A stretch of DNA of 64,000 bases from a virus. The notes under the pieces are model-generated. The model searched no databases and was not told the DNA's origin. It saw only the letters and a program-made list of their open reading frames with translations. Shown in pieces: positions 2,700 through 63,663 of the stretch (position 1 is its first letter; each line of letters begins with the position of its first letter). The stretch is taken from the IMG/VR virus record IMGVR_UViG_3300005663_001084, positions 24,929-88,928 of that record. One strand, 5' to 3'. A program made the position numbers and the translations under genes.

Positions 2700-3092
2700 T
2701 CAGCGCAACCTGCGCCCGGTGCCGCCACGGTCCAGTTCTCCCCAGGGGAAGTACCAGATCTCGAAGTCGTCCGGGAGGTGCTCCGCCAGCCGCTTCGCGA
2801 CGTGATTTGCCTTCCGGGCGGCCATACGCTGCTCGAAAGCCCACGGCGTGAGGCTGGCCATGCGCTTCGTAACGTCGATGCGCCCGGCAAACTGCGGGGG
2901 TCCTTCCATGCCAACGTCGAGGTGGTAGGTGTCCGGATCGACACCTTCCTGGCTGGCGAAGCTGAACTGACCATCTGACCACTTCCAGGCGTCGAAGTCC
3001 TTGGAGCCGCTGCGGTAGTGGCCGATGTCGGTGTAGTGCTGAGGAGCGGCCTCGCAGAGCAGCTTACGGATGACTTGGCGGGTGGAGTCCAT
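2700..3092 (-). CDS. L-family protein 1; shares its C-terminal domain with 3092..4057
   Basis: N-terminus MDSTRQVIRKLLCEAA. ATGA-coupled to the upstream gene. Confidence 0.7.
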   Translation of the reverse strand: MDSTRQVIRKLLCEAAPQHYTDIGHYRSGSKDFDAWKWSDGQFSFASQEGVDPDTYHLDVGMEGPPQFAGRIDVTKRMASLTPWAFEQRMAARKANHVAKRLAEHLPDDFEIWYFPWGELDRGGTGRRLR

Positions 3093-4057
3093 CAGTACAT
3101 TCTCTGCCCAGGCCTGCCGCGTTGCTGCCCGCTGAAGTACCAGACCGCCTCGACCTCGGGGAACCGGTCGACGAGCCGCTTCACGACGACCTTCGCTTTC
3201 CGTGCAGCGATGGGATTGTCGAGCAGGTCCCAGGCCGTGATGCTGGCCTCGCGCCGCTGAGGGTCGTAGCGTCCGCCGAAGTCAGGAGCGCCCTGAGTGT
3301 CGTAAATCAGGTTGTGGAACTTGTTCGGATCGACGCCTTCATCGCTGGCAACGCGCAGCCGACCTTCGTCCCAGATCCACGCGTCGGTACCTTCGCCGTG
3401 GCCGACGGTGAGGTAGTTGGCGGGGGCTTCGTCCAGGACCGCCTCGGCCCGGACCAGGGATTTGTCCTGGATCTCGTAGCCCTCAACGGCACCGACGTTC
3501 GCATAGTCGAAGCCTTGCAGGACCGCAACTTTCTGTTCGGCGAACCGACCGTGGACGATGTAGTAGGCAGCCTGCCCAACGACCTCGGTGAACAGCGCAG
3601 GCCGGGCTTCCACGGTAGCCAGCTTGGCGTGCGTGTTGTACGCGGCGAGTTCCCCACGGAGTGTGAACGGCTGACCGCGGGCGATGTGCGTGAAGTAATC
3701 GTGGACGGTCCGGAATAGCAGATTGTCCTCGACGCTGAAGACCGGGTGCTCAGAATCTCCGCTGTAGATTTTTAGAACGCCTGTCTCGCGGAAGTCCCGC
3801 TGCATTTCTTCAGACGACTCGTACGGGTCCTCGTCCGTGTACTCGACACGGGACCGGCCCAGGAACCGGCGAAACAGAATTTTGTTGCTGCTGTTGAGCG
3901 CCTCCCAGTGGCGGGCCGCGTCCGGGTCGTAACTGGGAGCCTCCTCGTAGGCGTCAGCGACGAGCCGCGCGTACTCGTTAAAATCTTTAAGTTCGAGCTT
4001 CTCGCGCACGTCCGCTTCGAGAAGCAGCTTCCGGATGGCTGTGCGGGTAGCGTCCAT
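3092..4057 (-). CDS. L-family protein 2 (321 aa)
   Basis: N-terminus MDATRTAIRKLLLEAD. The C-terminal approximately 110 aa are homologous to protein 1 (EGVDP..., AARKA..KRL...WYF). Confidence 0.7.
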   Translation of the reverse strand: MDATRTAIRKLLLEADVREKLELKDFNEYARLVADAYEEAPSYDPDAARHWEALNSSNKILFRRFLGRSRVEYTDEDPYESSEEMQRDFRETGVLKIYSGDSEHPVFSVEDNLLFRTVHDYFTHIARGQPFTLRGELAAYNTHAKLATVEARPALFTEVVGQAAYYIVHGRFAEQKVAVLQGFDYANVGAVEGYEIQDKSLVRAEAVLDEAPANYLTVGHGEGTDAWIWDEGRLRVASDEGVDPNKFHNLIYDTQGAPDFGGRYDPQRREASITAWDLLDNPIAARKAKVVVKRLVDRFPEVEAVWYFSGQQRGRPGQRMY

Positions 4058-24721: not shown

Positions 24722-24964
24722 TCATGCCGTCACGCCCATCTCCTTCAGCTTTTCAAAGACATCCTCGGGGATCTTCTCCCAGAAGACGATGTGCCGGAGC
24801 TTGTAGCCGCCCTGCTGAGGTTTATGGAGCCAGAGCAGCGGGTGCTTGCTAGTGATGAGGCTGCGGAAGGCGGGGCCTTGGACATGCCCGCCGTGGTCAG
24901 GCGTGCTCAGGTAGTACTGCGTCTCTTCGGTGTAGCAGACGTAGTATCGGGTCCGGCTGGGCAT
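24722..24964 (-). CDS. hypothetical protein
   Basis: ORF. Confidence 0.4.
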   Translation of the reverse strand: MPSRTRYYVCYTEETQYYLSTPDHGGHVQGPAFRSLITSKHPLLWLHKPQQGGYKLRHIVFWEKIPEDVFEKLKEMGVTA

Positions 24965-34856: not shown

Positions 34857-35786
34857 ATGAAAGAAGTCAGCCCCCCGGCGGCAGATGTCGGCGTCCTAGT
34901 CGGCAGGTTCCAAGTCCACAAACTCCACGAAGCACACCTGGAACTGATCAGGCACGTGGTCAAGCACCACGACCGCGTGATGATCTTCCTGGGCATGTCG
35001 CCGTGCCGCGTCACGAGGAACAACCCCCTCGACTTCGACGCCCGCAAAGCGATGATCCAGGACGCCTTCCCGGACGTAAGTGTCTACTACGTCAGGGACT
35101 GCCGACCCGATGACCTGTGGTCTAAGCGCCTCGACAACATGATCTATGAGCACATCAAGCCGGGCGCGAAGGTCCTGCTGTACGGTGGGCGCGACGCGTT
35201 CATCAAGCACTACGAAGGCAAGATCCCCACGCGCGAGTTGGAGCAGGAGGTCTTCATCTCGGGCACCGCCGTGCGCAACACCATCGCCAACACCGTGCCC
35301 AAGACGACCGACTTCCGCGCCGGGGTCATCTGGGCCTCCCAGAATCAGTACCCGCGTGCCATCCCCACCGTCGACGTGGCCGTCTGGGACGAGACCGGCG
35401 AGAAGCTCCTACTGGCCCGCAAGCCCGACGAGGATCTCTACCGCTTCATCGGCGGCTTTGCCACTGGCCCAACGTACGAGTCCGACGCGCGGCGCGAGGT
35501 CGACGAGGAAGCGCACATCGCCATCACCGATCCAGTCTACGTGGGCTCGCATCAGGTCGACGACTGGCGCTACCGCAGCGAGGCCGACAAGATCGTCACG
35601 CTCCTATTCGAGGCCAAGCGGCTCAGCGGCAACCCACGTCCCGACGATGACATCGCTGAACTCAAGTGGTTTGATTTCGCAACACTCCGCGACGAAATGG
35701 TCGTCCCGGAGCACCGTCCACTCCTCAAGATGCTTCAATGCAAGAGGGAGACACACCATGAAGACGAACATCGTACTGGCGACTGA
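34857..35786 (+). CDS. nadM: bifunctional NMN adenylyltransferase/Nudix hydrolase (NadM-Nudix type)
   Basis: N-terminal cytidylyltransferase-fold block VLVGRFQVHKLHEAHLELI. Nudix box GGFATGPTYESDARREVDEEAHI. The 3' end overlaps the nadV start. Confidence 0.8.
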   Translation: MKEVSPPAADVGVLVGRFQVHKLHEAHLELIRHVVKHHDRVMIFLGMSPCRVTRNNPLDFDARKAMIQDAFPDVSVYYVRDCRPDDLWSKRLDNMIYEHIKPGAKVLLYGGRDAFIKHYEGKIPTRELEQEVFISGTAVRNTIANTVPKTTDFRAGVIWASQNQYPRAIPTVDVAVWDETGEKLLLARKPDEDLYRFIGGFATGPTYESDARREVDEEAHIAITDPVYVGSHQVDDWRYRSEADKIVTLLFEAKRLSGNPRPDDDIAELKWFDFATLRDEMVVPEHRPLLKMLQCKRETHHEDEHRTGD

Positions 35787-37140
35787 CAGCTACAAGCTCA
35801 CCCACTGGAATCAGTACCCACGCGGCACGGAGAAGGTCTACTCCTACTTCGAGGCGAGGCCCGGCGCGAAGTACCGCGACACCGTGTTCTTCGGTCTCCA
35901 GTACATCATCGCCGAGTACCTCGCAGGCCACGTCGTCACGACCCAGAAGATCGACGAGGCCGAGGCGTTGGCAGCCCAGCACTTCGGCAATCCGAACATC
36001 TTCAACCGCGCCCGCTGGGACCACATCGTCGACCAGCACGACGGCCGCCTGCCTGTCCGCATCAAGGCGGTGCCCGAGGGCACGCCGGTCCCTGTCAACA
36101 ACGTGATGATGACCATCGAGAACACGGACCCGGCCTGCTACTGGCTGACCAACCACCTGGAGACGATCCTCACGCACGTGTGGTACCCGTCCACCGTGGC
36201 CACGCAGAGCCGGGAGGCCAAGCGGATCTGCAAGAGGTACCTCGAAGAGACTGCCGAGTCCGCTGGCGGCCTGGACTTCATGCTGCACGACTTCGGCTAC
36301 CGTGGCGTGTCGTCGGTGGAGTCGGCTGGCCTCGGCGGCGCTGGTCACCTCGTCAACTTCCACGGCACTGACACCATCGCGGCGATGGAACTGCTGCGTC
36401 AGTACTACGATGCCGACGTACCCGCGTTCAGCGTACCGGCCACCGAACACAGCGTGATGACCGCGCACGGTGCAGACGGTGAGAACTGGGTGCTGTCGCA
36501 ACTGCTCGATGCCTACCCTACCGGCATCCTGTCCATCGTGATCGACTCGTACGACTACCGGAAGTTCATCAAGATGGCAGGCACGACGTTCAAGGATCGC
36601 ATCCTTGCCCGCGACGGCAAGGTCGTCTTCCGTCCCGACAGCGGAGATCCGTGCGAGGTGACACTGGAGGTCCTGGAACTGCTGGGCGAGTACTTCGGGT
36701 CAGCCGACGGTAAGCCCGGCTACAAGATCCTGCACCCCCAGGTCGGCGTGATCTGGGGCGATGGCATCGATCTCGAAGACATGGAGCGCATCCTGGCCGA
36801 CATCACCTACGCGGGTTGGAGCGCCGAGAACATGGTGTTCGGCATGGGCGGCGGCCTGCTCCAGAAAGTCAACCGCGACATCCAGCGCTTCGCGTTCAAG
36901 AGCAGCTACCAGGAGCGCGGCGGCGAAGGCCACGACATCTTCAAGGAGCCCATCGACAAGACCAAGACCAGCAAGAAGGGCCGACTGAAGCTGGTGCGCC
37001 TCGAAGGCGCGCACGGCTCCACGCTGACCACCGTCGGCATCGATGATCCACGCGAGGACCTGCTGGAGACGGTCTTCGAGGGCGGTCAGGTCCTGAAACG
37101 TTACAGCCTGGACGAGATCCGCGCGAGAGCAGCACTGTAA
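35758..37140 (+). CDS. nadV: nicotinamide phosphoribosyltransferase (NAMPT/NadV)
   Basis: MKTNIVLATDSYKLTHWNQYP...FGYRGVSS...HGTDT. It is co-linear with the NAMPT family throughout. The track ORF 35146..37140 is over-extended into the nadM alternate frame. Confidence 0.85.
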   Translation: MKTNIVLATDSYKLTHWNQYPRGTEKVYSYFEARPGAKYRDTVFFGLQYIIAEYLAGHVVTTQKIDEAEALAAQHFGNPNIFNRARWDHIVDQHDGRLPVRIKAVPEGTPVPVNNVMMTIENTDPACYWLTNHLETILTHVWYPSTVATQSREAKRICKRYLEETAESAGGLDFMLHDFGYRGVSSVESAGLGGAGHLVNFHGTDTIAAMELLRQYYDADVPAFSVPATEHSVMTAHGADGENWVLSQLLDAYPTGILSIVIDSYDYRKFIKMAGTTFKDRILARDGKVVFRPDSGDPCEVTLEVLELLGEYFGSADGKPGYKILHPQVGVIWGDGIDLEDMERILADITYAGWSAENMVFGMGGGLLQKVNRDIQRFAFKSSYQERGGEGHDIFKEPIDKTKTSKKGRLKLVRLEGAHGSTLTTVGIDDPREDLLETVFEGGQVLKRYSLDEIRARAAL

Positions 37141-39671: not shown

Positions 39672-40103
39672 CTAAGCACCGTACTTCTCTCGTACGGTCT
39701 CCGCATACTTGGGCACCACAGCCACCGGGATCTGCTCGAAGCCTGCGTCACGCAGCACAGCGAAGCGGTGGCGACCGTTGGTGAATCCGGGCAGGCCGGA
39801 CTCGTACGGCCCAATCTCGGGCATGATGATCGGCACGTCCGGGTTGTCGTGGAACCACTGCTGGAACTTCTCATACCTGTTGCTGATCGTAGGCCCGGTG
39901 CCGCCGGGGCCTACGTAGTCCGACGACTGCGCCCAGGCCGCGTCGAACTTGGCCACGTCCACTACGACCTCAACATCGGTACCGGCACGTTCAGGTTTGA
40001 CGAACAGACGACCGCCAACATTGAACTTCTTGTGAGGAGAACTCTCCGGAGGCCGCTCCGCTGCCTCGGTCAGGATGTGGCGTATGGCTCGGCGCGCGTC
40101 CAT
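39672..40103 (-). CDS. L-family protein 10 with ParB-like domain
   Basis: N-terminus MDARRAIRHILTEAA. Motif GFTNGRHRFAVLRDAGF. Confidence 0.65.
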   Translation of the reverse strand: MDARRAIRHILTEAAERPPESSPHKKFNVGGRLFVKPERAGTDVEVVVDVAKFDAAWAQSSDYVGPGGTGPTISNRYEKFQQWFHDNPDVPIIMPEIGPYESGLPGFTNGRHRFAVLRDAGFEQIPVAVVPKYAETVREKYGA

Positions 40104-41095
40104 CAGTCACCTGCCTGACGCTGACGTTCCCGGCGGGCGAACAGCTTAGTCTTCTCTTTCTCCGCACGGCGTACAGACACAATCTTCACACTGGCATACT
40201 TGGTGCGTAGTTGATTGATCGCTTCGTGCCACCTGTCCACGCTTTTCATCACGTCGGTCCAGGTGTCGAAGGCGTAGCCTCGCTTACCCAAAAACGGAAA
40301 CTCCCCTGTCTTCTTCCAGTGCGGGTAAGCATCCATGTACTTCTGCTCAGGGCTGATCACCCAGATATCACTGGACTCCGGAACTTTAAGGGCACCGGAC
40401 TTCACTGCCCACTCGACCTCGGCAGAGTACAACGCGCCCATGTTCTTCACGCCCTGATGAAACCACTTCTTCCATTCGGAAGCGTCTGGGAAGTCCGGCT
40501 GGTCGTAGTCCAGGTGGCTCGTAATTGCTCTTCGGTATGGGTCGTCTGAGTTGTGCTCTTCATCCAGGAACTGCAAGAACAGCCTGACCATATCGTCGAC
40601 GCTGTTTATCCTGCGCCCTGATCTCGCGATCCAGTGGCCAAAACTCTGTAGTGGCCCGCTGTACTGGAATCCGTAGTGTTGCTGCGCCGCCCCGAAATCT
40701 CTGAGCGCTTTCAGGACGTAACTTCCCATCTTCGTAAGGATCTGCTGTGGGTCTCCGGGACTGTTGAACAGACGGCCGAGGGCTTCCATGTTGTTGGCCA
40801 TGAGGTACGCTGGATCGTCGTACCGGATCATCGATACGTCGTTGAGGGCGGCCACGTCATCGCCGGGCATGCGGATCAGGAGTTCGCGGAGTTGTCCCCA
40901 GTCCATGATCATGTCCTGAATGGACGTGGCCCCGATACCCTTCAGCCCTTCGAGGCGACCGCTCATCAGATTAGCGAGCATCTCGTCATAGTTATAGGAC
41001 CCGAAGTCCAGCGCGAGGTAGAAGTATTGAGGCACGGCAGCGTCGGCTGCCTCGGTCAGCATGATGCGGCGCATGGCTGTGCGGGTGGGGTCCAT
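40103..41095 (-). CDS. L-family protein 11 (330 aa)
   Basis: N-terminus MDPTRTAMRRIMLTEAA. ATGA-coupled. Confidence 0.7.
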   Translation of the reverse strand: MDPTRTAMRRIMLTEAADAAVPQYFYLALDFGSYNYDEMLANLMSGRLEGLKGIGATSIQDMIMDWGQLRELLIRMPGDDVAALNDVSMIRYDDPAYLMANNMEALGRLFNSPGDPQQILTKMGSYVLKALRDFGAAQQHYGFQYSGPLQSFGHWIARSGRRINSVDDMVRLFLQFLDEEHNSDDPYRRAITSHLDYDQPDFPDASEWKKWFHQGVKNMGALYSAEVEWAVKSGALKVPESSDIWVISPEQKYMDAYPHWKKTGEFPFLGKRGYAFDTWTDVMKSVDRWHEAINQLRTKYASVKIVSVRRAEKEKTKLFARRERQRQAGD

Positions 41096-41722: not shown

Positions 41723-43399
41723 TTACTCGAACAGGTGGATCTCTTTCGGATTGAACTCAGCTTCAAGGACTCCCTGAAGTTTGCCGGTCCACTTGTACTG
41801 ACCGGGGTTGACAACACTGAGCCTGCCGGTGTCGCCCTCGAAGTGGCCTTTCCAACGGCTATCGACAGGAGGGTCCAAGTAGTCCCAGACTAGGTTGTGC
41901 GACCACGTGGGCAGTTCACCGTGCTCCTGAAAATACTCTTCCATGGCTTCGTCGTCTTCCAGGTCGAAGTCAACCAAGTCTTCCATGATCTGTTGATGGC
42001 GCTCGACTTGACCGTGATTCAGCACCCATATCTCATGTGTTCTTGGGTCTGTATAATCCATCTCGAACTCGTCGCCAGGATCGACATGGTACGCCTCGTT
42101 GCCATGCCCAAGCTCGAAGTAGAATATCGCTGTACTTTCGTCACCAACCGTGTGCGGGACGACAGGAGACTCGGTCAGCAGGATACCGCGCATGATCTGC
42201 CGCATCGAGTCCGCCACGTGCCGCTCGCGTCCGCGCTGTCCGTAGGCGGGCTCCCCGAACTCGTCCGGCCACGGCGTGTCTTTGTACGACTGAAACTGTG
42301 GATCATCCAAGAACGTGCCAAGGTGTTTCCACCGCAGACGCAGGAGTTCCTCAGGAAGAAGCTCGTGCGTTCGGCTTTGGTTAAGCGGCCACGGGTTGGT
42401 GGGCCTTTCCTCGTCTCCCGGCATGAGGTCGCGTACGCTGCCGGGCTTGACGACGAACGTCGGTCCCACGCGCTCGATGTACTGCCTCCAGAACTCGGGG
42501 TCCGGCTTGCCGTAGAGTACCGTGTAGCGCTGGTACATGTCCGCGCCGGTCCTGGGCATCTGTCTCCAGTGCCATGCGTTGTCGTTCTGGACCGCCCAGA
42601 GGATCTTGTTGGCTCCCCGAAAGCCCACGTCCTGGTCAAGCCGGATGTTGCTGGCCCCAAACATCGCGCCTTTTGTATGCTTGGCGATCTGACCGCGCAC
42701 GGCCCGGAGCAGCTTCTCGTGCGCCTCGCGGACGATTGGCGTCGTCTTGGCTGTCCCACTCCAAGGATCGGTTGCCTTCTCTTCAATCGCCGCGCGCATC
42801 CAAGCTCGGATCATTTCCTTGTATGGGCGGAAGAGTCTCAGGGCGAACTCGCCGGGCATGCGCCGTTCGAGCTTCTCGTTCAAGAACCCGATGAAGTCCT
42901 CGAAGCTCGGCATCATGGCCCCGTCTACCTTGTCGTACCACTCCTTGTCCCAGTGCGCTGCCCCGGTCGCCTTCCGGTAGCTCTCCCAGTCAAGACTGTC
43001 AAGCGCGATCAGGATGGCCTGGGCCGTGTCCGACGAGGGGATGTTCTGGCCCACTCGGCGCATGAAGAGCGTGAGAGGGATGCTGGCCGAAAGCTGGTCT
43101 TCGTCGAACAGCGCGGTCCGCGTCTCGACCTGGAGGCCGAACACGACCGGCGCGCCGCCGAACTTCTCGGCTGCCTTTCTGGCTTCGCTCTCTGCCGTCA
43201 TCGCGTTCTGTGTAGCATAGATGCCTCCGTACGAGGCGATGGTGCCGCGCTCGGGATCGTACTGGCGCTGCTCGGGAGGAATGTCGGCACGCAGGCCCTC
43301 CTTGAAGACCAGACGGGCGCGGCCTGAAGACGTTCCGTGATAGTAGATCTCGCGGGCTTCGGTGAGCATCCTACGTATGGCTTGTCGGGCTGCGTCCAT
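41723..43399 (-). CDS. L-family protein 13 (about 558 aa); possible H-Y-E ADP-ribosyltransferase-like N-terminal domain; internal second leader motif
   Basis: N-terminus MDAARQAIRRMLTEARE. Candidate ART motifs YYHGTSSGR and YGGIYAT. Internal copy SMRQIMRGILLTES. The C-terminal approximately 170 aa are homologous to protein 14 (FYFELGHGN...LPTWSH...KGHFEGDTGRLS...EIHLFE). Confidence 0.7.
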   Translation of the reverse strand: MDAARQAIRRMLTEAREIYYHGTSSGRARLVFKEGLRADIPPEQRQYDPERGTIASYGGIYATQNAMTAESEARKAAEKFGGAPVVFGLQVETRTALFDEDQLSASIPLTLFMRRVGQNIPSSDTAQAILIALDSLDWESYRKATGAAHWDKEWYDKVDGAMMPSFEDFIGFLNEKLERRMPGEFALRLFRPYKEMIRAWMRAAIEEKATDPWSGTAKTTPIVREAHEKLLRAVRGQIAKHTKGAMFGASNIRLDQDVGFRGANKILWAVQNDNAWHWRQMPRTGADMYQRYTVLYGKPDPEFWRQYIERVGPTFVVKPGSVRDLMPGDEERPTNPWPLNQSRTHELLPEELLRLRWKHLGTFLDDPQFQSYKDTPWPDEFGEPAYGQRGRERHVADSMRQIMRGILLTESPVVPHTVGDESTAIFYFELGHGNEAYHVDPGDEFEMDYTDPRTHEIWVLNHGQVERHQQIMEDLVDFDLEDDEAMEEYFQEHGELPTWSHNLVWDYLDPPVDSRWKGHFEGDTGRLSVVNPGQYKWTGKLQGVLEAEFNPKEIHLFE

Positions 43400-43403
43400 T
43401 GCG

Positions 43404-45230
43404 CTACTCAAAAACGTGAATTTCAGTCGGGCTGAACTCGGAGCGGAGCATTCCGATCAACTGGTTGGTGAGTTTGAAGCGTCCAGGGTTCATGGCGCTG
43501 AGCCTTCCGGTGTCACCCTCATAATGACCTTTCCAGTACTGGTCGGGGTTCGGCCAGAGCATACCATGCGACCACGTGGGCAAGCCTCGTCCCTTCTCTT
43601 CTTGTTGATCGACGTAAGCCTGCAACGCTTCGGGATCGCTTAGGTCAACACCCTCGTCCTCGATGTTAGGCATGTTAAGCTGATGGTAACGCTGGATTTC
43701 GCCGTGCATCAGAACCCAAATCTCATGGGTCAGCGGATCGGTGTACTCCATCCCGTCGTCATACGAGGTGTTCCCGTGTCCGAGGTCGAAGTAAAATACG
43801 GATGTACCTTCATCGTCGATCTTGTGGAGCGTGACATCGCTGGCGACGACAGATTCGGGGAGGCTCTCCTTGTCCATCACCACAAGAGCCGGAAGCGCCT
43901 CGACACCCAGGACGTGGAGAGCGTCGTACCGGTGGCTGCCCTCCAGGACGTACGGGCCTTCTTTGTCGACAACCACGATCAGCGGCACGATCCAACCACT
44001 TGCAGCGATCTGCTGCGCCAGTTCGCGGGCCGCCTCGTTGTCATCTCCAGAAGTCTCGAAAGCAGACAAGGGAACGGCGCGGATGCCGGACAGCACCTCG
44101 TAGTCCAGAAGACTGGCCGCGATGGAACTGGTATTTGGAACTTCGTCACCCACGCGGAGGCCGCTGACCTCGTCACCAGCCCGTGGGTAGAGTTCGTCCT
44201 CCTGGGCCTCGGCGAGTATTCGACGTATCACACGTCGGCTTTCGGTCAGCGCCTCGTCCTGCCCGGCGTAAAACCTGCGGATCGCACCCATGATGCGGCG
44301 CGAGTTTTCTCCGGGATCGAACATGTAGGACTTATTCCGTTCGGCCTTCCAGTAGTAGTCGTTACGCTCGTCGAATTCGCCCAGGCCGTCCTCCATATCG
44401 ACCGGCATGCCCTCGGCGCTGAAGTTATCGATCCAGCCCTCCAAGGTCCGGTACTGCGCCGAGGTGGGCTGGACCATCATGTCGAGGCCGCCGTCTTCAG
44501 GCATCAGACGGATCGCGCCCAGGCTCATAAACTCCTGCATGCCGCGCGTGCCGCCCCCGCCGTAACCGATGTTCCGATGGTCAAAGCCGCGCCCGTAGCC
44601 GCCGCCCCCGCCCGAGATCATGTCGCCGTCAGGCAGCAAGTAGAACGCATCGGTGAAGCTGCTCGTGATCCCGAACCGGCCCTTGGCTTTCTCGAACGGG
44701 TCGGCCTCGTCCTCCGCGTCCTCTACGCCGGGCCAGTCCTCCATGGACAGCGGCATCTCGTTGTCTAGCTTTCGGAGAACCTGGAGCGGGATCTCGCGGT
44801 ACCTGGACTCCTGGCCGTTCTGCACACTACGGAATACGGAGCGAGCGTACTCTCCGGCCGACCAGCCGAACTCGTCACTGATCACTCCAATGATCCGGGC
44901 GTGGAAGTCCAGCAGTATCTGGGGTTCGTTCTGGACGAGCGCAGCCATCTCTCCCGGATTCCAGTTGAGTGCGTCGTAGACCGCGCTCCAGATAGTCCGG
45001 TGCTCACCCTCGTCGAACGTAGCCAGCGTGTACTCGGGGAACAGTTCAGTGACAATCCTCTCGTAGCGCTGCCAGTCGTAGTCCCTGTCCTCCTCACGGT
45101 TTACCGCGTCCAGGAAGAACTCCCGCAGGTGATCGTACGTCATGTTCCAGACGTGCCGAGGCTGGGTGGGAGCCTCAACGCTGGCCTGCTCGGCCAACAC
45201 CTGCCGCATCACTAGGCGAGTGGCATCCAT
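43404..45230 (-). CDS. L-family protein 14 (about 608 aa) with internal leader copy, ParB-like domain and a C-terminal domain shared with protein 13
   Basis: N-terminus MDATRLVMRQVLAEQ. Internal copy ESRRVIRRILAEAQ. ParB-like motif YVLEGSHRYDALHVLG. C-terminal FYFDLGHGN...LPTWSH...EIHVFE. Confidence 0.7.
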   Translation of the reverse strand: MDATRLVMRQVLAEQASVEAPTQPRHVWNMTYDHLREFFLDAVNREEDRDYDWQRYERIVTELFPEYTLATFDEGEHRTIWSAVYDALNWNPGEMAALVQNEPQILLDFHARIIGVISDEFGWSAGEYARSVFRSVQNGQESRYREIPLQVLRKLDNEMPLSMEDWPGVEDAEDEADPFEKAKGRFGITSSFTDAFYLLPDGDMISGGGGGYGRGFDHRNIGYGGGGTRGMQEFMSLGAIRLMPEDGGLDMMVQPTSAQYRTLEGWIDNFSAEGMPVDMEDGLGEFDERNDYYWKAERNKSYMFDPGENSRRIMGAIRRFYAGQDEALTESRRVIRRILAEAQEDELYPRAGDEVSGLRVGDEVPNTSSIAASLLDYEVLSGIRAVPLSAFETSGDDNEAARELAQQIAASGWIVPLIVVVDKEGPYVLEGSHRYDALHVLGVEALPALVVMDKESLPESVVASDVTLHKIDDEGTSVFYFDLGHGNTSYDDGMEYTDPLTHEIWVLMHGEIQRYHQLNMPNIEDEGVDLSDPEALQAYVDQQEEKGRGLPTWSHGMLWPNPDQYWKGHYEGDTGRLSAMNPGRFKLTNQLIGMLRSEFSPTEIHVFE

Positions 45231-45688
45231 CAGCCCCAGGCTTCCTTGTCGTGCTGTACCAGCGCGCGGGTCATGTCCTGGGTGAGCGGCTCGACGTTGA
45301 TGGTGTCTTCCGACGGGACCGCAGCCATCCGCTTGAGCCACTGCCCTTCCGCCCCGGCCTGCGAAAGCGGGTCTGCCGTGTCGACCTCCCACTCCTCGCC
45401 GCTCGGGCTGAACGTGACAATGGAGATGTCGCCGCTCCCCATGGCCTGATTCAGATCCCAGTCCATCTTCGAGGCCCAGCGTATGGCGTCGAACTTGTTA
45501 TCGAACGCGAAGATTTCACCCTGGCCGTAGCGCTCGCCAGTCCCAGACATGGCCCAGTTGGAGGGCTGCATCGGGACGAGCCCACGCTTCTGGATATCTG
45601 AGACCCGGTCAGTGGGGGTGACGTGGTAGTACTCGACGCCCTGGGCCTCGGTGAGTATCCGTCTGAGGGCTCTGCGGGTGGGGTCCAT
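45230..45688 (-). CDS. L-family protein 15; possible ART-like fold
   Basis: Internal start MDPTRRALRRILTEAQ. Motifs YYHVTPTDR, GEIFAFD and EEWEVD. Confidence 0.6.
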   Translation of the reverse strand: MDPTRRALRRILTEAQGVEYYHVTPTDRVSDIQKRGLVPMQPSNWAMSGTGERYGQGEIFAFDNKFDAIRWASKMDWDLNQAMGSGDISIVTFSPSGEEWEVDTADPLSQAGAEGQWLKRMAAVPSEDTINVEPLTQDMTRALVQHDKEAWG

Positions 45689-45727
45689 GGAGGTGAATCT
45701 TACTCGTTTTGGCATCCCCGAGTCAAT
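45689..45727 (-). promoter_or_regulatory. sigma70-like promoter for the 45688-to-39672 L-family operon
   Basis: The reverse complement reads TTGACT-N18-TAAGATtcacctccATG. Confidence 0.5.
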
Positions 45728-46852: not shown

Positions 46853-47335
46853 ATGCCAGAAGATCACGACTGGAAAGCGATCAGCCAACTGATGGAGCAG
46901 GCGTCCGTCCTGGCCCAGCGGTACAATCTGTGCATCTGGAACGGCATCAAAGCTGACGGCAGCAGGCACATCGAAGCCTACCGCATGAAGCGTGGCGAGA
47001 AGGACGTTGTGCTGACTACCCCGAGCATGGAAAAAATGATCGAGAAGCTCACCGTGATGGCTGTAGAGGGGAAGCTGGAACATCACGACCGCGCCGTCGA
47101 AGACATCGACCCAGAGATCTGGCACCTGCACATCGACAGCGCTGCGTTCAATCTGCTGCACAAGACACAGGATCTGCACCAGACGTTCAGTCATCTGATC
47201 GGCCCGGTAGGGCTGGTGTACGACCGGTACTGCGTCATCGACATGCAGCTACGGAACCTGTGCCTATCTATCCAAAACCTAACCAGTTCGATACGCAAAG
47301 TCCCCATTCGAGAAAGAGAGAAGAAGCATGGATAA
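46853..47335 (+). CDS. hypothetical protein
   Basis: Internal start MPEDHDWKAIS. Confidence 0.45.
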   Translation: MPEDHDWKAISQLMEQASVLAQRYNLCIWNGIKADGSRHIEAYRMKRGEKDVVLTTPSMEKMIEKLTVMAVEGKLEHHDRAVEDIDPEIWHLHIDSAAFNLLHKTQDLHQTFSHLIGPVGLVYDRYCVIDMQLRNLCLSIQNLTSSIRKVPIREREKKHG

Positions 47336-48002
47336 TCCGATCATCGTGGCCCTCGATGGCATCGACATGTCGAAGGCTATCGCTCTCGCGCAGCTATTGA
47401 AGGATGACGTGTGGGGGTTCAAGGTCAACGACCTGTTCTTCCAGCACGGCATCCAGGCTGCCAACAACCTCGGGGTCTTTGGCAACGTCATGCTCGATGG
47501 GAAGTTCCACGACATCCCGAATACCGTGGAGAACACCACGAAGAAGATCGCAATCTTCGGCCACCCGGCTCCCGGCATCGTTACCATACACGCCTCCGGC
47601 GGCCCTGCGATGATACGGGCTGCTGTTGAGTACCTTCCGGGAAAGGTTGCGGCTGTCACCGTGCTCACGTCATTAGACGAGGACGCCTGCATGCACGTTT
47701 ACAACGTGCGGCCTGAGGTTGCCGTCAAGCGCCTCGCCAGTATGGCCCACGAATACGGAGCCAGCTTCATTGTGTGCAGCCCTCTGGAACTTGCCGCGCT
47801 CAAAGACATCCCTCGTCCCAAGATCGTCCCAGGCATCCGCCCGCTCTGGTACCAGGAGGCTGACGATCAGGCGCGGAAAATGACTCCTGCCGAGGCAATG
47901 GAAGCCGGGGCCGGGTTCCTGGTCATGGGCCGTCCGATCCTGCGCGCGGACGATCCGGTCGAAGCCGCGCAGCGCACACTCGAAGAGATCAAGAAGGGGT
48001 AA
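47328..48002 (+). CDS. pyrF: orotidine 5'-phosphate decarboxylase
   Basis: IVALDGIDM...FKVN; LDGKFHDIPNTV (catalytic DxKxxDIPNT); HASGG; VTVLTS; PGIRP; GRPI. All OMPDC signature blocks are present, in order. Confidence 0.85.
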   Translation: MDNPIIVALDGIDMSKAIALAQLLKDDVWGFKVNDLFFQHGIQAANNLGVFGNVMLDGKFHDIPNTVENTTKKIAIFGHPAPGIVTIHASGGPAMIRAAVEYLPGKVAAVTVLTSLDEDACMHVYNVRPEVAVKRLASMAHEYGASFIVCSPLELAALKDIPRPKIVPGIRPLWYQEADDQARKMTPAEAMEAGAGFLVMGRPILRADDPVEAAQRTLEEIKKG

Positions 48003-48004
48003 CT

Positions 48005-48823
48005 ATGTCACGCGACTGGAAGAACACAGGACTCTACCAGGAGTTCAACCAGGACGATGCGGACACCCGCGTCGAACGGTTCATTGAGGCCGCCGCCAAG
48101 CTGACCGTCGAGTTCCTGGAGGACCAGGATGCCTTCTGGCATTGGGACGGCCACAAGCACGTGGCGGAGTTGACCAGCGGCAAGCTGAGCAACTTCTTCG
48201 CCAACTGCACGCCGATCTTCACACACCCCGGCATCCAGAAGGACATCGCACACGCACTGTGCGAGAAGCTGGTGCGCAGCGTGTACGTCGGGATGGATAA
48301 GTTCCTGGGGAAGCCCGCAGGATACCACGGTCAGCCACGTATACTCACCGACGATAGGCTGTTCAAGACGCACCCTAACCGCTGGGTCGTCGGCTCCGCC
48401 ATGGGCAGCATCGGCCTCGCGCAGTCCATCGCCTCGGTCCTGGGCCAGGGCTGGAAGGCCGCATTCGCCGACAAAGGTGGCGACGGCATGGAACTCAAGC
48501 GGTTCGACCTGGGGGAAGCGCCCATGGTCCTGCTCTGCGAGGATGTGTTCACAACCGGTGGGACCATCAAGTCGACGATCATGGCCGTCGAGAAGAAGCA
48601 CGAGGACGTTCTCTTCGTGCCCGAGGTCCCGACCATCATCAACCGCAACCCGGGCTACTCCTTCCAGGTCAAGCAGGGTGGACCCGGCTTCCACTTCCCG
48701 GCGCTCATCACCAAGGTCGCTGAAACCTGGGACGATGTCACCAGCCTGCCCGAGCGCATGAAAGGCTGCGTCCCGATCCGGCCGAAAGTAGGATGGAAAA
48801 AACTAACAACCGCGATGTTATAG
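48005..48823 (+). CDS. type-I phosphoribosyltransferase, putative orotate PRTase, with a roughly 100-aa N-terminal extension
   Basis: PRPP-binding motif VLLCEDVFTTGGTIKS. Adjacent to pyrF. Confidence 0.6.
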   Translation: MSRDWKNTGLYQEFNQDDADTRVERFIEAAAKLTVEFLEDQDAFWHWDGHKHVAELTSGKLSNFFANCTPIFTHPGIQKDIAHALCEKLVRSVYVGMDKFLGKPAGYHGQPRILTDDRLFKTHPNRWVVGSAMGSIGLAQSIASVLGQGWKAAFADKGGDGMELKRFDLGEAPMVLLCEDVFTTGGTIKSTIMAVEKKHEDVLFVPEVPTIINRNPGYSFQVKQGGPGFHFPALITKVAETWDDVTSLPERMKGCVPIRPKVGWKKLTTAML

Positions 48824-54959: not shown

Positions 54960-55383
54960 ACCCAGCGACGAGTTCTGGGCAGCCTTCCGTTGCGGCGGAA
55001 GCCTCGTCATCCTGTGCGAGCACTGCGGACGGACACACTTCTGTACCACTTCCGGGGCTGTCGACTACAACGAAGGTGAACTGGAAGAGCTACTGGAGAA
55101 GGCCAAGAAAGACCCCGACATGTACCGTGAAGACGGCACGTACAGCAGCATCGAGTGGGGATACATCGGCGGGAAGCAGTCTGTCATGCACTGCCCCTGC
55201 AACGAAGAGAAGATCGCTCCCTACGAACAGTTCATCATCGTCCACGCCGAACAGATCCTGGAGTATCTCCAGAGCCGAGCTAATAAAAAACTCAGGAGTT
55301 CTCAGAGCCTCATGGACAAGGTCAACGAGACACTTAACGCCACAGAGGAAGCAGACAATGCGAGTAACCGTAGCCCCGAATGA
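54949..55383 (+). CDS. zinc-binding protein
   Basis: CEHCGRTHFC...HCPC. Confidence 0.45.
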   Translation: MMRKPSDEFWAAFRCGGSLVILCEHCGRTHFCTTSGAVDYNEGELEELLEKAKKDPDMYREDGTYSSIEWGYIGGKQSVMHCPCNEEKIAPYEQFIIVHAEQILEYLQSRANKKLRSSQSLMDKVNETLNATEEADNASNRSPE

Positions 55384-56566
55384 ACCGCCCGAGTCCTGGA
55401 CCTCATCGGTTTTCCTCGCCGGTCCCACGCCACGCAAAGAGGGCGACACCCGCTGGCGTGACAAAGCTATCGCGGAGTTCAAGAAGAGAGGCTTCGACGG
55501 TGTGATCCTCGACCCCGAGCGTGAGGACTGGCCCGAAGACAAAGAGGGCTACGAAGAGCAGATCCACTGGGAGCAGGAGATGCGCGAGCGGTGCGACGTA
55601 ATCCTGTTCTTCGTCCCGCGCCACATGGAACTGGCCCCCGGACTGACGACCAACATCGAGTTCGGCCAGGACCTATCAGGCTGGAAGGTCGTCTACGGCA
55701 GGCCCAACGACGCGGTCAAGATGGACTACATGGATCTCATCTACAAGCAGCGCTACAAGGTGGTCCACGAGACGTCCATCGAGGCCACGGTCCAGGCCGC
55801 CATGGACATGATCGAGACGCTCACGGAGAAGATCCACGACGTCGAGGCGGAGACGAGTGCGCTGCGTGAGGACGGCGAGACCTATGTGCCTCTTCACATC
55901 TGGTCGTCTCCCCAGTTCCAGTCCTGGTACAAGGCTCAGCTTGCCGTGGGCAACCGTCTTGACGCCGCCCGCGTGGAGTACGCGTTCGTGATGCCCAAGG
56001 CAGGGCTGCTGTTCATGTTCGTACTGTGGGTCAAGGTCTGGATCGAGGCAGAGCAGCGGCACAAGGAGAACGAGTTCATCGTCAGCCGCACCGACATCTC
56101 CACCATCGTGGCGTACAAGAAGGCGCTGTCCGGATCGCTGGCCGACACTGAACTGGTCCTGGTCCAGGAGTTCCGCAGCCCGGTCCGTAACAGCAGCGGC
56201 TTCGTCTACGAGTTGCCCGGTGGGTCAAGCATCAAGCCTGGGCAGGACCCGCTACAGATCGCGGCCGAAGAACTCCACGAGGAAACCGGCATCAAGATCG
56301 ACGACCCGAAGCGGTTCGTTCAGGTCATGCCGAAGCAGCTTGTCGCCACCATGCTCACGCACCAAGCCCACGTCTTCGCCATCGAACTGACCGAGGAGGA
56401 GATGGCTGTCGCGCGGGCCAAGGACGCGGCCGACGAGACCCACGGTCTGGAAGAGGACTCGGAGAAGACCTACGTCCGGGTCACGACGTTCGGTGAGCTT
56501 CCCGACCGCGATGTCGACTGGTCGACCATCGGGATGATCACCACGGCCCTACGCCAGGAACTCTGA
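55358..56566 (+). CDS. fusion of nucleoside 2-deoxyribosyltransferase-like (DNPH1/NDT fold) and Nudix hydrolase
   Basis: N-terminal SVFLAGPTP...CDVILFFVP...TNIEFG. C-terminal Nudix-like box GGSSIKPGQDPLQIAAEELHEETG. The start was moved from the over-extended track ORF 55076. Confidence 0.5.
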   Translation: MRVTVAPNEPPESWTSSVFLAGPTPRKEGDTRWRDKAIAEFKKRGFDGVILDPEREDWPEDKEGYEEQIHWEQEMRERCDVILFFVPRHMELAPGLTTNIEFGQDLSGWKVVYGRPNDAVKMDYMDLIYKQRYKVVHETSIEATVQAAMDMIETLTEKIHDVEAETSALREDGETYVPLHIWSSPQFQSWYKAQLAVGNRLDAARVEYAFVMPKAGLLFMFVLWVKVWIEAEQRHKENEFIVSRTDISTIVAYKKALSGSLADTELVLVQEFRSPVRNSSGFVYELPGGSSIKPGQDPLQIAAEELHEETGIKIDDPKRFVQVMPKQLVATMLTHQAHVFAIELTEEEMAVARAKDAADETHGLEEDSEKTYVRVTTFGELPDRDVDWSTIGMITTALRQEL

Positions 56567-56567
56567 C

Positions 56568-56864
56568 ATGCCTCCAGCGATTATGATGTCTTACGACCGT
56601 GTGCAGGTCTTCCGGTTTGGCGACGGCACTGATTGGGTTGCTACGCGTGACGTCGACGAGGCCATCAAGTGGTACTGTGCCGAGAACGGGTTCGAGGATG
56701 CCGACGATGCCGGATTCGATCCGAATCCCGTCTGCCTGATGACCGAGCACTACATCGAAGGGAACAACCCTGAAGCAGGTCGGGAGACCTTCCTCGACTG
56801 CATCAAGATACGCATTAAGAATGGCTGGGAGTTCCCGGCCGTCATCAGCAGCGAGAACTCCTGA
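56568..56864 (+). CDS. hypothetical protein
   Basis: ORF. Confidence 0.45.
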   Translation: MPPAIMMSYDRVQVFRFGDGTDWVATRDVDEAIKWYCAENGFEDADDAGFDPNPVCLMTEHYIEGNNPEAGRETFLDCIKIRIKNGWEFPAVISSENS

Positions 56865-56865
56865 T

Positions 56866-57687
56866 ATGAATGATGATTACCATGGTCCTCCGCCAGGAGT
56901 TACAGCCATGAATTTCGACACCGAGCTTGTGCAGTGCATGGTCGACCGCATCTGCGATTTTCACAGGGGCCAGACCCGTAAGGCCCTGCCGATCCCGTAC
57001 ACCTTTCATCTCTTCGACGTGGCCAAGACGCTGGTCAACTGGGGCATCGAAGATGCCGACGTCATTGCCGCTGGTCTGGGGCACGACCTGATCGAGGACA
57101 CCAAGGACAGTCACCCCAGCCTGATCGCACAATTCGGCACACGTATCGCCGGGATGATCGACGAACTGACTTGGGTCAAGGAGGACGGCACCAGTCGGAC
57201 GGCCAAGGTCAAGCACTGGAAGCAGTTCGCCGAGCACTCCACCATCCAGGCCCTGGTCATCAAGGCGGCCGACCGCTACTGCAACGTCCGGGACTACGCC
57301 CGGCAGCGCAGTCGGGACAACGAGTACGAAGGCGAGTACGCGGCCCGGTATGCCTGCTATCTGTACCCGGTGTGGCGGGCGATCTACACTCGGCAGGACG
57401 AGGTCTCTCGGGTCTTCGGAGACAGGGCGCAGCGGCTCATGGACCCGGACATCCGGTGGATCATCCGCCTCATCCGCTGCGACGTGAAGATTTGCCTGGA
57501 CGTCATCAACTCCAGGACGGTCCTCATCGACGGCGCTCTGGACATCGGGCTGGGCAAGGAACTTTGCGACGCTCAGGCTGATCTGGAGAGGCTGAACCAC
57601 GAGCGCTCCAAGAACGAGAAGGAGATCCAGGCAGCCGAATTGAGGCTCCATAAGCTGAATAGGCGGGCCTCCGATGAGCCTGAGTGA
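56866..57687 (+). CDS. HD-domain phosphohydrolase of the SpoT/Mesh1 small-alarmone-hydrolase type
   Basis: FHRGQTRKALPIPYTFHLFDVAKTL...AAGLGHDLIEDT matches the RelA/SpoT HD signature. The alternative start ATG 56908 has an AGGAG ribosome-binding site. Confidence 0.65.
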   Translation: MNDDYHGPPPGVTAMNFDTELVQCMVDRICDFHRGQTRKALPIPYTFHLFDVAKTLVNWGIEDADVIAAGLGHDLIEDTKDSHPSLIAQFGTRIAGMIDELTWVKEDGTSRTAKVKHWKQFAEHSTIQALVIKAADRYCNVRDYARQRSRDNEYEGEYAARYACYLYPVWRAIYTRQDEVSRVFGDRAQRLMDPDIRWIIRLIRCDVKICLDVINSRTVLIDGALDIGLGKELCDAQADLERLNHERSKNEKEIQAAELRLHKLNRRASDEPE

Positions 57688-62316: not shown

Positions 62317-63219
62317 TTGTACAATAGGATCATGTACAAGACCTGCACAAACCCGACGTGCCAACAGTCTAACCCACAGTCGGTCTCAAACTTCGCTATC
62401 GACCGGCGTGTCAAGACGAAGATATCTTATCAGGCTAGGTGCAGGGACTGCAAGCGGCAAGCCGCCCGGGAGAACAGGCGGAAACGTGTACAGGAGAGCA
62501 AGGGTCTTTATTCTCGATGGAGTACGATGAAAACTCGGTGCTATAACAAGAACTGCGACGCGTATAAGTACTATGGAGCCCGAGGGATTGAGGTATGTAA
62601 AGGCTGGAGAGAATCCTACGGAGCCTTTGAGGCGTGGGCTCTAGCCTCCGGCTACGACCCGAAGAAGACGCTGGACCGCGTAGACTGCACCGGACCGTAC
62701 TCCCCAGATAACTGCCGGTGGGCGACGTGCCAGGAGCAGGCACTAAACACTCGTAGGACGAATCCTGGAAGACACAAGCCAAAGCCCAGAAAGAGTAAGT
62801 CCAGCAGAGCCCCTCTCGAAGTAGTGATGAAAAGACGCTGGTACGATATGCGAAACAGATGCAGCAATCCGAACAACAGAGCGTACCTCCACTACGGGGG
62901 CAGAGGCATTCTCATAGCCTCAGAGTGGCAGGACTTTGCCACCTTCCGCATTTGGCTGATCAGCCAGGGTTTCAAGGTAGAACTTACATTGGATCGTGTC
63001 GACGTAAACGGATCGTACTCCCCAGAAAACTGTCGGCTTGCAACAAGAACACAGCAAGCCAGAAACACACGACAGGTTAGGTTGTCCAGAGAAAAGGCAG
63101 CAGAGATCAGGATACTCTCTGCCCAAGGTGTATCCGGTAGGCAGATCGCCAAGCGATTTGGAGTTACGCCACCAACCATTTACTCAGTGCTAAACGGAAG
63201 ACTTTGGCGCACGCCATAG
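62317..63219 (+). CDS. tandem-domain DNA-binding protein (actinophage HNH-like/YGGRGI family) with C-terminal HTH; lower GC
   Basis: Two repeats of RW..M..RC.N.....Y.YYG(A/G)RGI.VC..W..F..F........LDRVD..G.Y.P.NCR.AT, followed by RQIAKRFGVTPPTIYSVLNG. Confidence 0.5.
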   Translation: MYNRIMYKTCTNPTCQQSNPQSVSNFAIDRRVKTKISYQARCRDCKRQAARENRRKRVQESKGLYSRWSTMKTRCYNKNCDAYKYYGARGIEVCKGWRESYGAFEAWALASGYDPKKTLDRVDCTGPYSPDNCRWATCQEQALNTRRTNPGRHKPKPRKSKSSRAPLEVVMKRRWYDMRNRCSNPNNRAYLHYGGRGILIASEWQDFATFRIWLISQGFKVELTLDRVDVNGSYSPENCRLATRTQQARNTRQVRLSREKAAEIRILSAQGVSGRQIAKRFGVTPPTIYSVLNGRLWRTP

Positions 63220-63663
63220 ACGACACCAACCTTCTGGTCGAATCCAATTCCTTATTTGTGAACATAAATTCTTCCCGTTCGAGACTTTCATGTACGAAAA
63301 TTCACAATTCCCGCAGCGCTGAGTCTCGCTGGCCGACTCGTCGGTGTACTCGGCGTCGGCAGGGTCCATCTTGTACGCGTCGGTGCCGCTGCCCAGGATG
63401 TAGTAGAGCAGGGGCTCACGCATCTGGACCTCGGGCGGCAGGCGGGACCAGTCGCGGATCACCTTCTTGACCGGGGAGGGAGCCTGGGTTCCGGCCTCCG
63501 GATAGCCGCGCACCCGGACCGGCTTCTCCGGTGCAGGGTCCGGTTGCGGATTGAGGTCGCGGGGCTCGACGGTGCCCTGCGACATCATCTCTTCGTCGTC
63601 CTCAGGCGGGAGCGGGGCCTGCTCGTTCAGCAGCTTCCGCATCGCCCTGCGTGTCTGGTCCAT
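63190..63663 (-). CDS. L-family protein 16
   Basis: N-terminus MDQTRRAMRKLLNEQA. C-terminal CGNCEF...C. Confidence 0.65.
   Translation of the reverse strand: MDQTRRAMRKLLNEQAPLPPEDDEEMMSQGTVEPRDLNPQPDPAPEKPVRVRGYPEAGTQAPSPVKKVIRDWSRLPPEVQMREPLLYYILGSGTDAYKMDPADAEYTDESASETQRCGNCEFSYMKVSNGKNLCSQIRNWIRPEGWCRLWRAPKSSV

Follow-up and report, generated by a model that had tools for sequence, protein, structure and literature searches.

The window analyzed here is a stretch of 64,000 nucleotides (nt) from the IMG/VR virus record IMGVR_UViG_3300005663_001084 (positions 24,929 to 88,928), with a GC content of ~0.59, which belongs to an uncultured phage from marine sediment metagenomes. The minus strand of this window carries a family of genes whose products begin with the same short leader peptide, and the two largest members of the family, the adjacent proteins P13 and P14, contain further copies of this leader in their interior.

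A profile search identified 16 minus-strand genes in the window that start with the motif MD.TR..hR.hL.E. When a looser regular expression of this motif was run against the whole six-frame translation, 13 matches were obtained, all of them on the minus strand and consisting of 11 gene starts and the two internal copies, with zero false positives. Residues D2, R5, R9, L12 and E14 were invariant in 16/16 leaders, the position between the final L and E was occupied by T, N, A, Y, L or C, and the residue following E14 was A, S, G or Q (A in 11/16). Conservation of the leader as a DNA or RNA signal was considered and rejected, as the invariant residues are encoded by a range of synonymous codons (R5 by four, R9 by five and L12 by four); it is thus the peptide that is constrained and not the nucleic acid.

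All-versus-all BLAST of the family with the leaders stripped revealed only three related pairs, besides a match between the C-terminal domains (CTDs) of P13 and P14. The leader therefore sits on mostly unrelated proteins, as a short peptide with the character of an amphipathic helix (modelled as a helix with low confidence) that is followed by Pro- and acid-rich linkers. The leader genes are arranged in five clusters, four of them multi-gene, in which each later gene either overlaps its predecessor as TGATG (stop/start) or follows it after a 4-nt spacer. Shine-Dalgarno sequences were not visible at the leader-family genes in the window.

Internal leader copies in P13 and P14

The internal copies were scored with a position matrix derived from the 16 N-terminal leaders only, from which the initiator Met was left out and which allowed for a one-residue insertion that is present in the P13 internal copy and also in the neighbouring gene 40103-41095. 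An earlier note on this DNA had placed second leader copies in both proteins, in P14 directly ahead of a ParB-like module, and both were detected at the expected places (Table 1). The note had also named chance similarity as the outcome that would overturn this claim. In 5000 composition-preserving shuffles per protein, the maximum scores were 16.7 bits for P13 and 13.4 bits for P14, compared to 18.9 and 18.1 bits observed, and the highest internal score in the other predicted open reading frames (ORFs) of the window was 3.6 bits. The claim thus withstood this test. An ungapped hidden Markov model of the N-terminal leaders was discarded for this purpose, as it gave the P13 internal copy only 1.7 bits on account of the one-residue insertion.

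The P13 internal leader retains D2, R5, R9, L12 and E14, with Met1 replaced, and the P14 internal leader retains R5, I8, R9, I11, L12 and E14, having lost only M1 and D2. These two positions may be needed only at a true N-terminus. The P14 internal leader is, in addition, bracketed by two L-x-E sites, LTE at residues 328-330 and LAE at residues 339-341. Both proteins were also said to end in a common domain of roughly 170 residues; a shared CTD was indeed found (P13 residues 408-558 versus P14 residues 461-608, 50% identity, E 9e-44), although its length is ~147 amino acids (aa).

The long ORFs of P13 and P14 are not assembly artefacts, because the exact P13 product is present on four contigs (the two places shown being runs SRR1555744 and SRR1555743) and the gene caller independently predicts products of 558 aa for P13 and 608 aa for P14. 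P13 also appears, with its start called shorter, as P0004 on a contig of 224,854 base pairs (bp).

Table 1. Positions of the leader-family features discussed in the text (numbering of the 64,000-nt window).
Feature	Position	Strand	Remarks
Promoter-like TTGACT-18-TAAGAT	45697..45726	-	ends 8 nt before the ATG at 45688; consensus match only
First gene of the six-gene leader operon, 152 aa	45230..45688	-	paralogue of the P13 N-terminus
P14: leader 1, N-domain, internal leader, ParB-like module, decayed leader, CTD	43404..45230	-	608 aa
P14 N-terminal leader MDATRLVMRQVLAE	45189..45230	-	start codon overlaps the upstream TGA stop (TGATG)
P14 N-domain, residues 15-327	44250..45188	-	ends ..IRRFYAG-QDEA
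P14 internal leader LTESRRVIRRILAE, residues 328-341	44208..44249	-	18.1 bits, 0/5000 shuffles
P14 ParB-like module, residues 342-451	43878..44207	-	Pfam/PHROG matches
P14 decayed third leader MDKESLPE, residues 452-459	43854..43877	-	DNA GTGGTGATGGAC
P14 CTD, 148 aa	43407..43850	-	
P13: leader 1, N-part, internal leader, CTD	41723..43399	-	ORF and gene call; 558 aa
P13 N-terminal leader MDAARQAIRRMLTE	43358..43399	-	
P13 N-part, residues 15-395	42215..43357	-	first ~130 aa paralogous to the 152-aa gene 45230-45688
P13 internal leader ADSMRQIMRGILLTE, residues 396-410	42170..42214	-	18.9 bits, 0/5000 shuffles
P13 CTD, 146 aa	41726..42163	-	uncharacterised family
Last gene of the operon, free-standing, leader and ParB-like motif, 143 aa	39672..40103	-	
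Third fused family member, 321 aa	3092..4057	-	C-terminal domain (residues 207-320) homologous to the whole 130-aa neighbour
Decayed internal leader QDKSLVRAEAVLDE of the 321-aa member	3428..3469	-	leader-length

Origin of the internal leaders by gene fusion

At the level of sequence comparison, P13 and P14 were shown to be end-to-end fusions of formerly separate genes, each of which started with a family leader. P13 was resolved in this manner into a leader with the N-part followed by a leader with the CTD, and P14 into a leader with the N-domain, a leader with the ParB-like module and a decayed leader with the CTD, i.e., into three former genes and not two.

For P13, a search with the internal leader and CTD retrieved three free-standing proteins of 157-175 aa from three related contigs, all carrying a leader at the N-terminus. 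P0003 starts with MDASRQVMRRIMLMTEA, P0001 and P0002 (the latter after start correction) start with MSVR(T/S)VVLS(L/M)LTEA, and the neighbours of these three genes include other leader-family genes. An exhaustive profile search added P0005, a protein of 420 aa encoded at locus L006. The P13 internal leader is orthologous to the N-terminal leader of P0003 and to an internal leader of P0005. The same leader-plus-CTD cassette (65% identity) follows unrelated upstream modules in P13 and P0005, with the homology breakpoint located at the first codons of the leader. The N-part of P13 likewise has a free-standing homologue elsewhere, the 280-aa protein P0035.

For P14, the most direct evidence came from locus L006, which is syntenic with positions 46600-43400 of the window and has in common with it the divergent genes and the promoter-like site as well as a counterpart of the 152-aa first gene (88% identical). 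The L006 gene at the place of P14 encodes P0005, which starts with MDATRTAIRSILNEAQVEEPYPLAGAEVSGLRVGDEVPNT and aligns with P14 residues 331-460 at 55% identity (likewise 55% for the ParB-like region of P14 against P0005 residues 4-139); the P14 internal leader is thus the orthologue of a true N-terminal leader. Homologues of the P14 N-domain with their own leaders were also found (P0031 and P0033). The free-standing proteins P0032 and P0034 end in ..IRRFFGG and ..IRRFFTPP, respectively, each followed by a stop codon, and P14 runs on from the same point (..IRRFYAG-QDEA-LTESRR..). The assignment of three former genes to P14 follows from its third junction, as MDKESLPE aligns with the leader of P0003 and the underlying DNA (GTGGTGATGGAC) retains the canonical TGATG overlap, which is now out of frame. 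P0005 has the same decayed junction (MDTGEVSESLTE). Residues 140-256 of P0005 (L006 positions 1713-2063) are themselves CTD-like, though diverged (profile E 6.6e-5, ..YGHG..FHGRYDPE..), so that this protein contains two CTD-type domains in tandem with a well-kept leader between them.

A third fused member, of 321 aa, was found at positions 3092-4057. Its C-terminal 114 aa are 39% identical (E 3e-24) to the whole product of the neighbouring gene 2700-3092 (130 aa), and they are preceded by a leader-length segment, QDKSLVRAEAVLDE, in which D2, L12 and E14 (with A behind it) survive and R5 and R9 are gone. To judge from this arrangement, the 321-aa member has the same fusion history as P13 and P14. 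Its C-terminal domain and the 130-aa neighbour are distant relatives of the CTD (profile E 3e-5), and its N-domain matches phrog_3170, a family of unknown function.

The earlier note had offered recombination at the leader as one way in which the modules might have been fused. Fusion at the leader is strongly supported by the free-standing leader-bearing modules and by the breakpoints at the leader, but the events look more like the end-to-end joining of neighbouring, translationally coupled genes than like recombination between leaders, because TGATG stop/start overlaps join the genes of these clusters and one junction keeps such an overlap out of frame. Since stop and start overlap or lie only 4 nt apart, a small frame-restoring change would suffice to join two coupled neighbours, whereby the downstream leader would become an internal linker.

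Constraint on the internal leaders and the L-x-E sites

When P13 was compared with P0005, all 14 residues of the internal leader core (RQIMRGILLTESPV) were identical; its codons showed 5 synonymous differences and no non-synonymous one, whereas the 25 codons that follow showed 4 and 13, respectively (Fisher p = 0.005). By this codon comparison, the P13/P0005 internal leader was shown to be under purifying selection, and constraint is thereby shown for one internal leader.

At the three decayed junctions, MDKESLPE in P14, MDTGEVSESLTE in P0005 and QDKSLVRAEAVLDE in the 321-aa member, R5 and R9 were lost and L-x-E was kept in 3/3 cases, among which P14 and P0005 represent the same ancestral event and the independent cases therefore number two. 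L-x-E was present at all fusion junctions, including the decayed ones. In the mature parts of the family, [LI]xE occurred at 0.81x the shuffled expectation, compared to 1.28x in non-family ORFs (Poisson p ~0.005), a control that consisted of a heuristic ORF set. Within P14, 3/5 of the [LI]xE sites outside the N-terminus are located at module junctions, and two of these are the sites that bracket the internal leader. Altogether, these indirect, small-sample signals agree and point to a leader helix that is dispensable in old fusions and an L-x-E that is not.

These patterns bear directly on the possibility that the internal leaders are functionless scars of recent fusions, left in single multidomain proteins in which the motif is decaying neutrally. 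The fusion origin itself, the clear decay of the older junctions and the loss of M1 from the internal copies, and of D2 also in P14, would all be expected of such scars, and the co-occurrence of the ParB-like module and the P14 N-domain in either order (P0030, P0034) suggests that the two may work jointly as one protein. Neutral decay is nevertheless difficult to reconcile with a P13/P0005 leader that shows 5 synonymous and no non-synonymous changes beside a region with 4 and 13, with the retention of the core residues R5, I8, R9, I11, L12 and E14 in the P14 internal copy, and with decayed junctions that keep L-x-E yet lose the equally invariant R5 and R9. We therefore regard scars as unlikely, though as an explanation that deserves to be kept in view.

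The same junctions also inform on whether the internal leaders could serve as extra docking helices. Each copy would bind one and the same partner (scaffold, core or another receptor) and so give large cargo a multivalent and stronger loading, without cleavage being the selected function. That the whole helix and not L-x-E alone is conserved in P13, P0005 and P14, that the two largest members carry well-kept second copies, and that the leader is modelled as a helix, even if with low confidence, would be in agreement with this role. The decayed junctions, however, lose the helix core and keep L-x-E, the 321-aa member manages with one intact leader, and the binding partner is itself hypothetical, all of which renders this explanation improbable.

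Finally, the internal leaders could act as internal translation starts, by which the downstream module would also be made separately, and leader-bearing, from the same mRNA. P13 does offer a GTG codon (V395) directly before ADSMRQ and an ATG codon (M399) within the motif, but the P0005 counterparts read ATT, GTC and TGT and P14 has CTG, so that no start codon is conserved. The family moreover lacks Shine-Dalgarno sequences and appears to depend on stop/start overlaps, which are absent inside the fusions, and this explanation is barely credible as a result.

Proposed function of the leader and the fusions

In phage T4, gp21 cuts after L/I-x-E. The internal proteins and Alt, which are otherwise not related to one another, share a 10-residue N-terminal capsid-targeting sequence (CTS) that brings them to the prohead core and is afterwards cut off (PMC9026906, PMC3012670, PMC5694885). 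We consider the chances slightly better than even that the leader described here is a capsid-targeting propeptide of the T4 type, with a protease site (L-x-E) at its end, and that P13 and P14 are polyproteins which undergo processing. We infer the cleavage, the protease and the capsid targeting and packaging of P13 and P14 from the gene sequences; the protease and its specificity are assumed, since no prohead protease or structural gene is present in the window.

In this proposal, the leader would form an amphipathic helix with which cargo docks on the prohead core; its end, L-x-E followed by a small residue, would be cut by the prohead protease. In the fusions only the first leader would be needed for loading, and the internal leaders would persist as protease sites, so that a fusion would be loaded as one polyprotein and then be split into its modules inside the head. 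The predicted cleavage sites are located after E410 in P13 and after E330, E341 and E459 in P14, where the two bracketing L-x-E sites would lead to the excision of a peptide of 10-11 residues. The features expected of a polyprotein were observed in the sequences, as the units occur independently elsewhere (free-standing CTD and N-domain genes, and P0005 as a gene that starts with a leader and the ParB-like module) and the junctions carry L-x-E. The suggestion of the earlier note that each protein is cut into two packaged fragments is plausible, with indirect support from the selection on the internal leader, the retention of L-x-E at every junction and the relative depletion of [LI]xE elsewhere in the family.

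A more far-reaching version, in which multi-enzyme polyproteins are loaded via a single T4-like leader and cut at L-x-E remnants into separate injected effectors, is put forward tentatively, as we judge it to fall somewhat short of an even chance. The same rating applies to the part of that version in which the leader is both a loading tag and an evolutionary joint where cargo modules have been fused, swapped and released.

Several observations weigh against the propeptide and polyprotein reading. No prohead protease, scaffold, capsid or portal gene was found in the window. Apart from the terminal [IL]-x-E, no resemblance in sequence between the leader and the T4 CTS is apparent, and packaging and protease are established for T4, whereas the present system is known from genes alone. 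The selection test comprises one sequence pair and 14 codons, and the CTD has further blocks that are just as well conserved. Internal leaders are not maintained in every case, as the decayed relics demonstrate, and as decayed leaders were partly recognised by their kept L-x-E, the 3/3 retention is subject to ascertainment bias; the heuristic nature of the ORF set used as the [LI]xE control has to be added to this. A weaker point is that the cluster promoters, which are consensus matches only, are sigma-70-like and fit early expression better than the late expression of T4-head type.

The sigma-70-like promoters would also be in line with a leader that targets a destination other than the capsid, such as an encapsulin- or microcompartment-like shell, a phage nucleus-like compartment, a membrane or an oligomerisation partner, with the internal copies as inter-domain versions of the same signal. 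A short amphipathic helix, then Pro- and acid-rich linkers, common to unrelated cargo is what such a signal could look like, and the encapsulation peptides of bacterial microcompartments, which have been reported at termini and between domains, are similar in appearance. Against this, no shell, encapsulin or chimallin-like protein was detected among the 41 window proteins scanned against Pfam and/or PHROGs, the invariant L-x-E with a small residue at the peptide end matches a gp21-type cleavage site, and the surrounding genome, of 225 kb or more, is that of a phage and includes a small T4-related gene. A non-capsid destination is, on balance, quite improbable.

If the leader is a capsid-targeting propeptide, the window would hold at least 16 tagged cargo genes in 64 kb, which would be an unusually large candidate set of injected proteins. 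Almost none of the 16 leader-tagged genes have a known function, and the sequence tag would, if this reading is true, provide a means of finding such cargo in metagenomes. The fusions would additionally show how such a set evolves, through the merging of coupled neighbours and the recycling of the downstream leader as a linker that can still be cut.

Modules of the fused proteins

The CTD family is widespread, with proteins of 113-336 aa. No Pfam, PHROG or PDB-sequence relative of the CTD was found, its confident model (pLDDT 87.5) had no convincing structural neighbour, and the scan of IMG/VR and JGI metagenome contigs for CTD relatives retrieved none. To judge from its sequences, the CTD defines a new, widespread family of small domains. 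The context of one remote homologue, P0011 at locus L008, looks bacterial. In a distant branch of the family, a conserved peptide, W[VI][RK].NC[RK]FA[KE]P, was found just ahead of the domain, at the N-terminus of the short proteins (P0006, P0009 and P0011) and internally in the long ones (P0008, P0010, P0012 and P0018), an arrangement that echoes the leader-then-fusion pattern. Further CTD branches have common N-termini of their own, such as MNW[YL]KKI.. and MILT[QK].YSR[VI].

P14 residues 397-451 match the core of the ParB N-terminal domain (..LEGSHRYDAL..), as does the equivalent region of P0005. Over ~55 residues, the match of P14 to Pfam ParB_N (PF02195) had an E value of 2.2e-4 and 21.7 bits, below the curated cut-off of 26.3, and the match to a ParB-like PHROG had an E value of 1.6e-5; the precomputed ParB annotation was 'faint' for P14 and 'weak' for P0005. 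The assignment of this module as ParB-like is accordingly weak but reproducible. No DNA-binding or dimerisation domain was found beside it in the Pfam/PHROG scans of P14. The module is weakly similar to the 143-aa member that closes the operon. The ParB-like module is found alongside the P14 N-domain (..FYLLPDG.M..GGG..DHRNI.YG.GGT.GMQEFM.LGAIRLMPE..) in both possible orders, with the N-domain first in P14 (43878-45188) and the ParB-like module first in P0030 and P0034, which suggests a functional partnership.

The N-domain of P13 had no Pfam or PHROG match, and phmmer against PDB sequences retrieved nothing. A pattern, [YF]H[GV]T .. G[IS/E][YI]F/A[ST/F] .. QVE, is common to this domain (43000-43357, minus strand, P13 residues 15-130), the 152-aa gene (45230-45646, minus strand) and distant homologues (P0035 and L005 positions 2488-2970). 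It resembles the H-Y-E signature of PARP-like ADP-ribosyltransferases, which would parallel the packaged T4 enzyme Alt; Pfam, PHROG and PDB-sequence searches gave no support for this pattern.

Expression of the leader genes and genomic context

In all four multi-gene clusters, a -10-like hexamer (TAnnAT) lies ahead of the first gene and ends ~7-8 nt before its start codon (starts at 45688, 23098, 16391 and 14773), and like sites were observed at the related loci L003 (~285-325), L004 (~1265-1307), L005 (~1560-1601) and L006 (~795-837). A -35 element of the form TTGACx at 17-18 nt is clear at 45688, L003, L004 and L006 and degenerate or absent elsewhere. These sites are consensus matches only, and the number of promoter-like sites in the region is not above chance. 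The position of the -10 so close to the start suggests that the mRNAs are leaderless or nearly so. In the cluster at 23098 the first gene has GTG as its start codon, which is odd for a leaderless mRNA.

Amongst the other leader-bearing genes, a 157-aa protein (63190-63663, minus strand) has a C-terminal match to Pfam HIPIP (25 bits, cut-off 22). A high-potential iron-sulfur protein would be an unexpected cargo for a putative head-internal protein.

The genes around P13 and P14 are accessory genes of the type found in large phages and encode NAMPT, NUDIX, OMP decarboxylase, HNH and endonuclease VII-like proteins as well as a T4_Y13H-family protein (Pfam match), the T4-related small gene referred to above. 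Part of this set belongs to a cluster of nucleotide and NAD metabolism on the plus strand (35146-37140, 47328-48823 and 55076-57687), with NAMPT, OMP decarboxylase, a weak phosphoribosyltransferase-like ORF, an HD_4 phosphohydrolase and a nucleoside 2-deoxyribosyltransferase-like domain fused to NUDIX. The top phage relatives of the HD_4 protein are from Erwinia jumbo phages, at ~31% identity.

Comparison of the region with INPHARED phages by megablast gave no match, and neither did tblastn of P13 and a 330-aa family member against 50,697 INPHARED phage records. A search with homologues of the 152-aa gene for further syntenic loci yielded three distant loci, one of them on a 436-kb contig, and no usable junctions. 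L009 and L011 have no leader motif, and L010 has one sub-threshold match (16.5 bits) located 109 residues into an ORF. On L009 (Ga0326728_10000058, a contig of 436,173 bp with a GC content of 0.594) and L011, the homologues of the 152-aa domain are the C-terminal part of larger ORFs. With no motif within 20 kb at L009, the leader system appears to be lineage-specific.

Comparison with known systems

The giant phages phiKZ, 201phi2-1 and SPN3US offer one point of comparison. A gp21-like protease processes their ejection and inner-body proteins at several places in each protein, and every cut falls behind the Glu of a three-residue motif (PMC9026906, PMC5694885, PMC10052503). The giant-phage context, large sets of paralogous head-internal proteins (putative here) and such cleavage (proposed here) are the common elements. 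The motif of these phages is, in contrast, S/A/G-x-E, with propeptides that often exceed 100 residues, compared to L-x-E and a 14-residue leader here, and their families are paralogous over the whole protein, whereas the proteins of the present family are unrelated domains with only a short leader in common.

In herpesviruses, the protease-scaffold fusion is a capsid-internal polyprotein that is released by the maturation protease. One targeting element brings the fused protein into the procapsid and internal cleavage frees its parts, which is similar to what is proposed for P13 and P14. The herpesvirus proteins are structural and assembly proteins with self-cleavage, unlike the accessory cargo modules described here, the cleavage of which is hypothetical.

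The closest likeness is to the T4 CTS of IPI, IPII, IPIII and Alt. In both cases a short N-terminal peptide is found on otherwise unrelated proteins, its last residues are [LI]-x-E with a small residue behind them (a likeness of sequence pattern only), and the genes are located in variable clusters that differ between related phages. The peptides differ in length (10 residues in T4 and 14 here), and T4 has a handful of CTS members, compared to at least 16 leader genes in 64 kb. Among the scanned family proteins, no Pfam or PHROG match to internal-protein families was found, so that the likeness does not extend to homology with the T4 internal proteins themselves.

A protein fused behind a CTS-bearing protein is co-packaged into T4 heads (PMC9026906), and the fusions described here would be a natural counterpart of such engineered CTS-fusion packaging. 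Natural multi-cargo fusions with kept internal leaders are not described in the T4 literature cited here. By analogy, the leader and its fusions read as CTS-type cargo tagging, which is known, and the natural multi-cargo fusions would be the new part.

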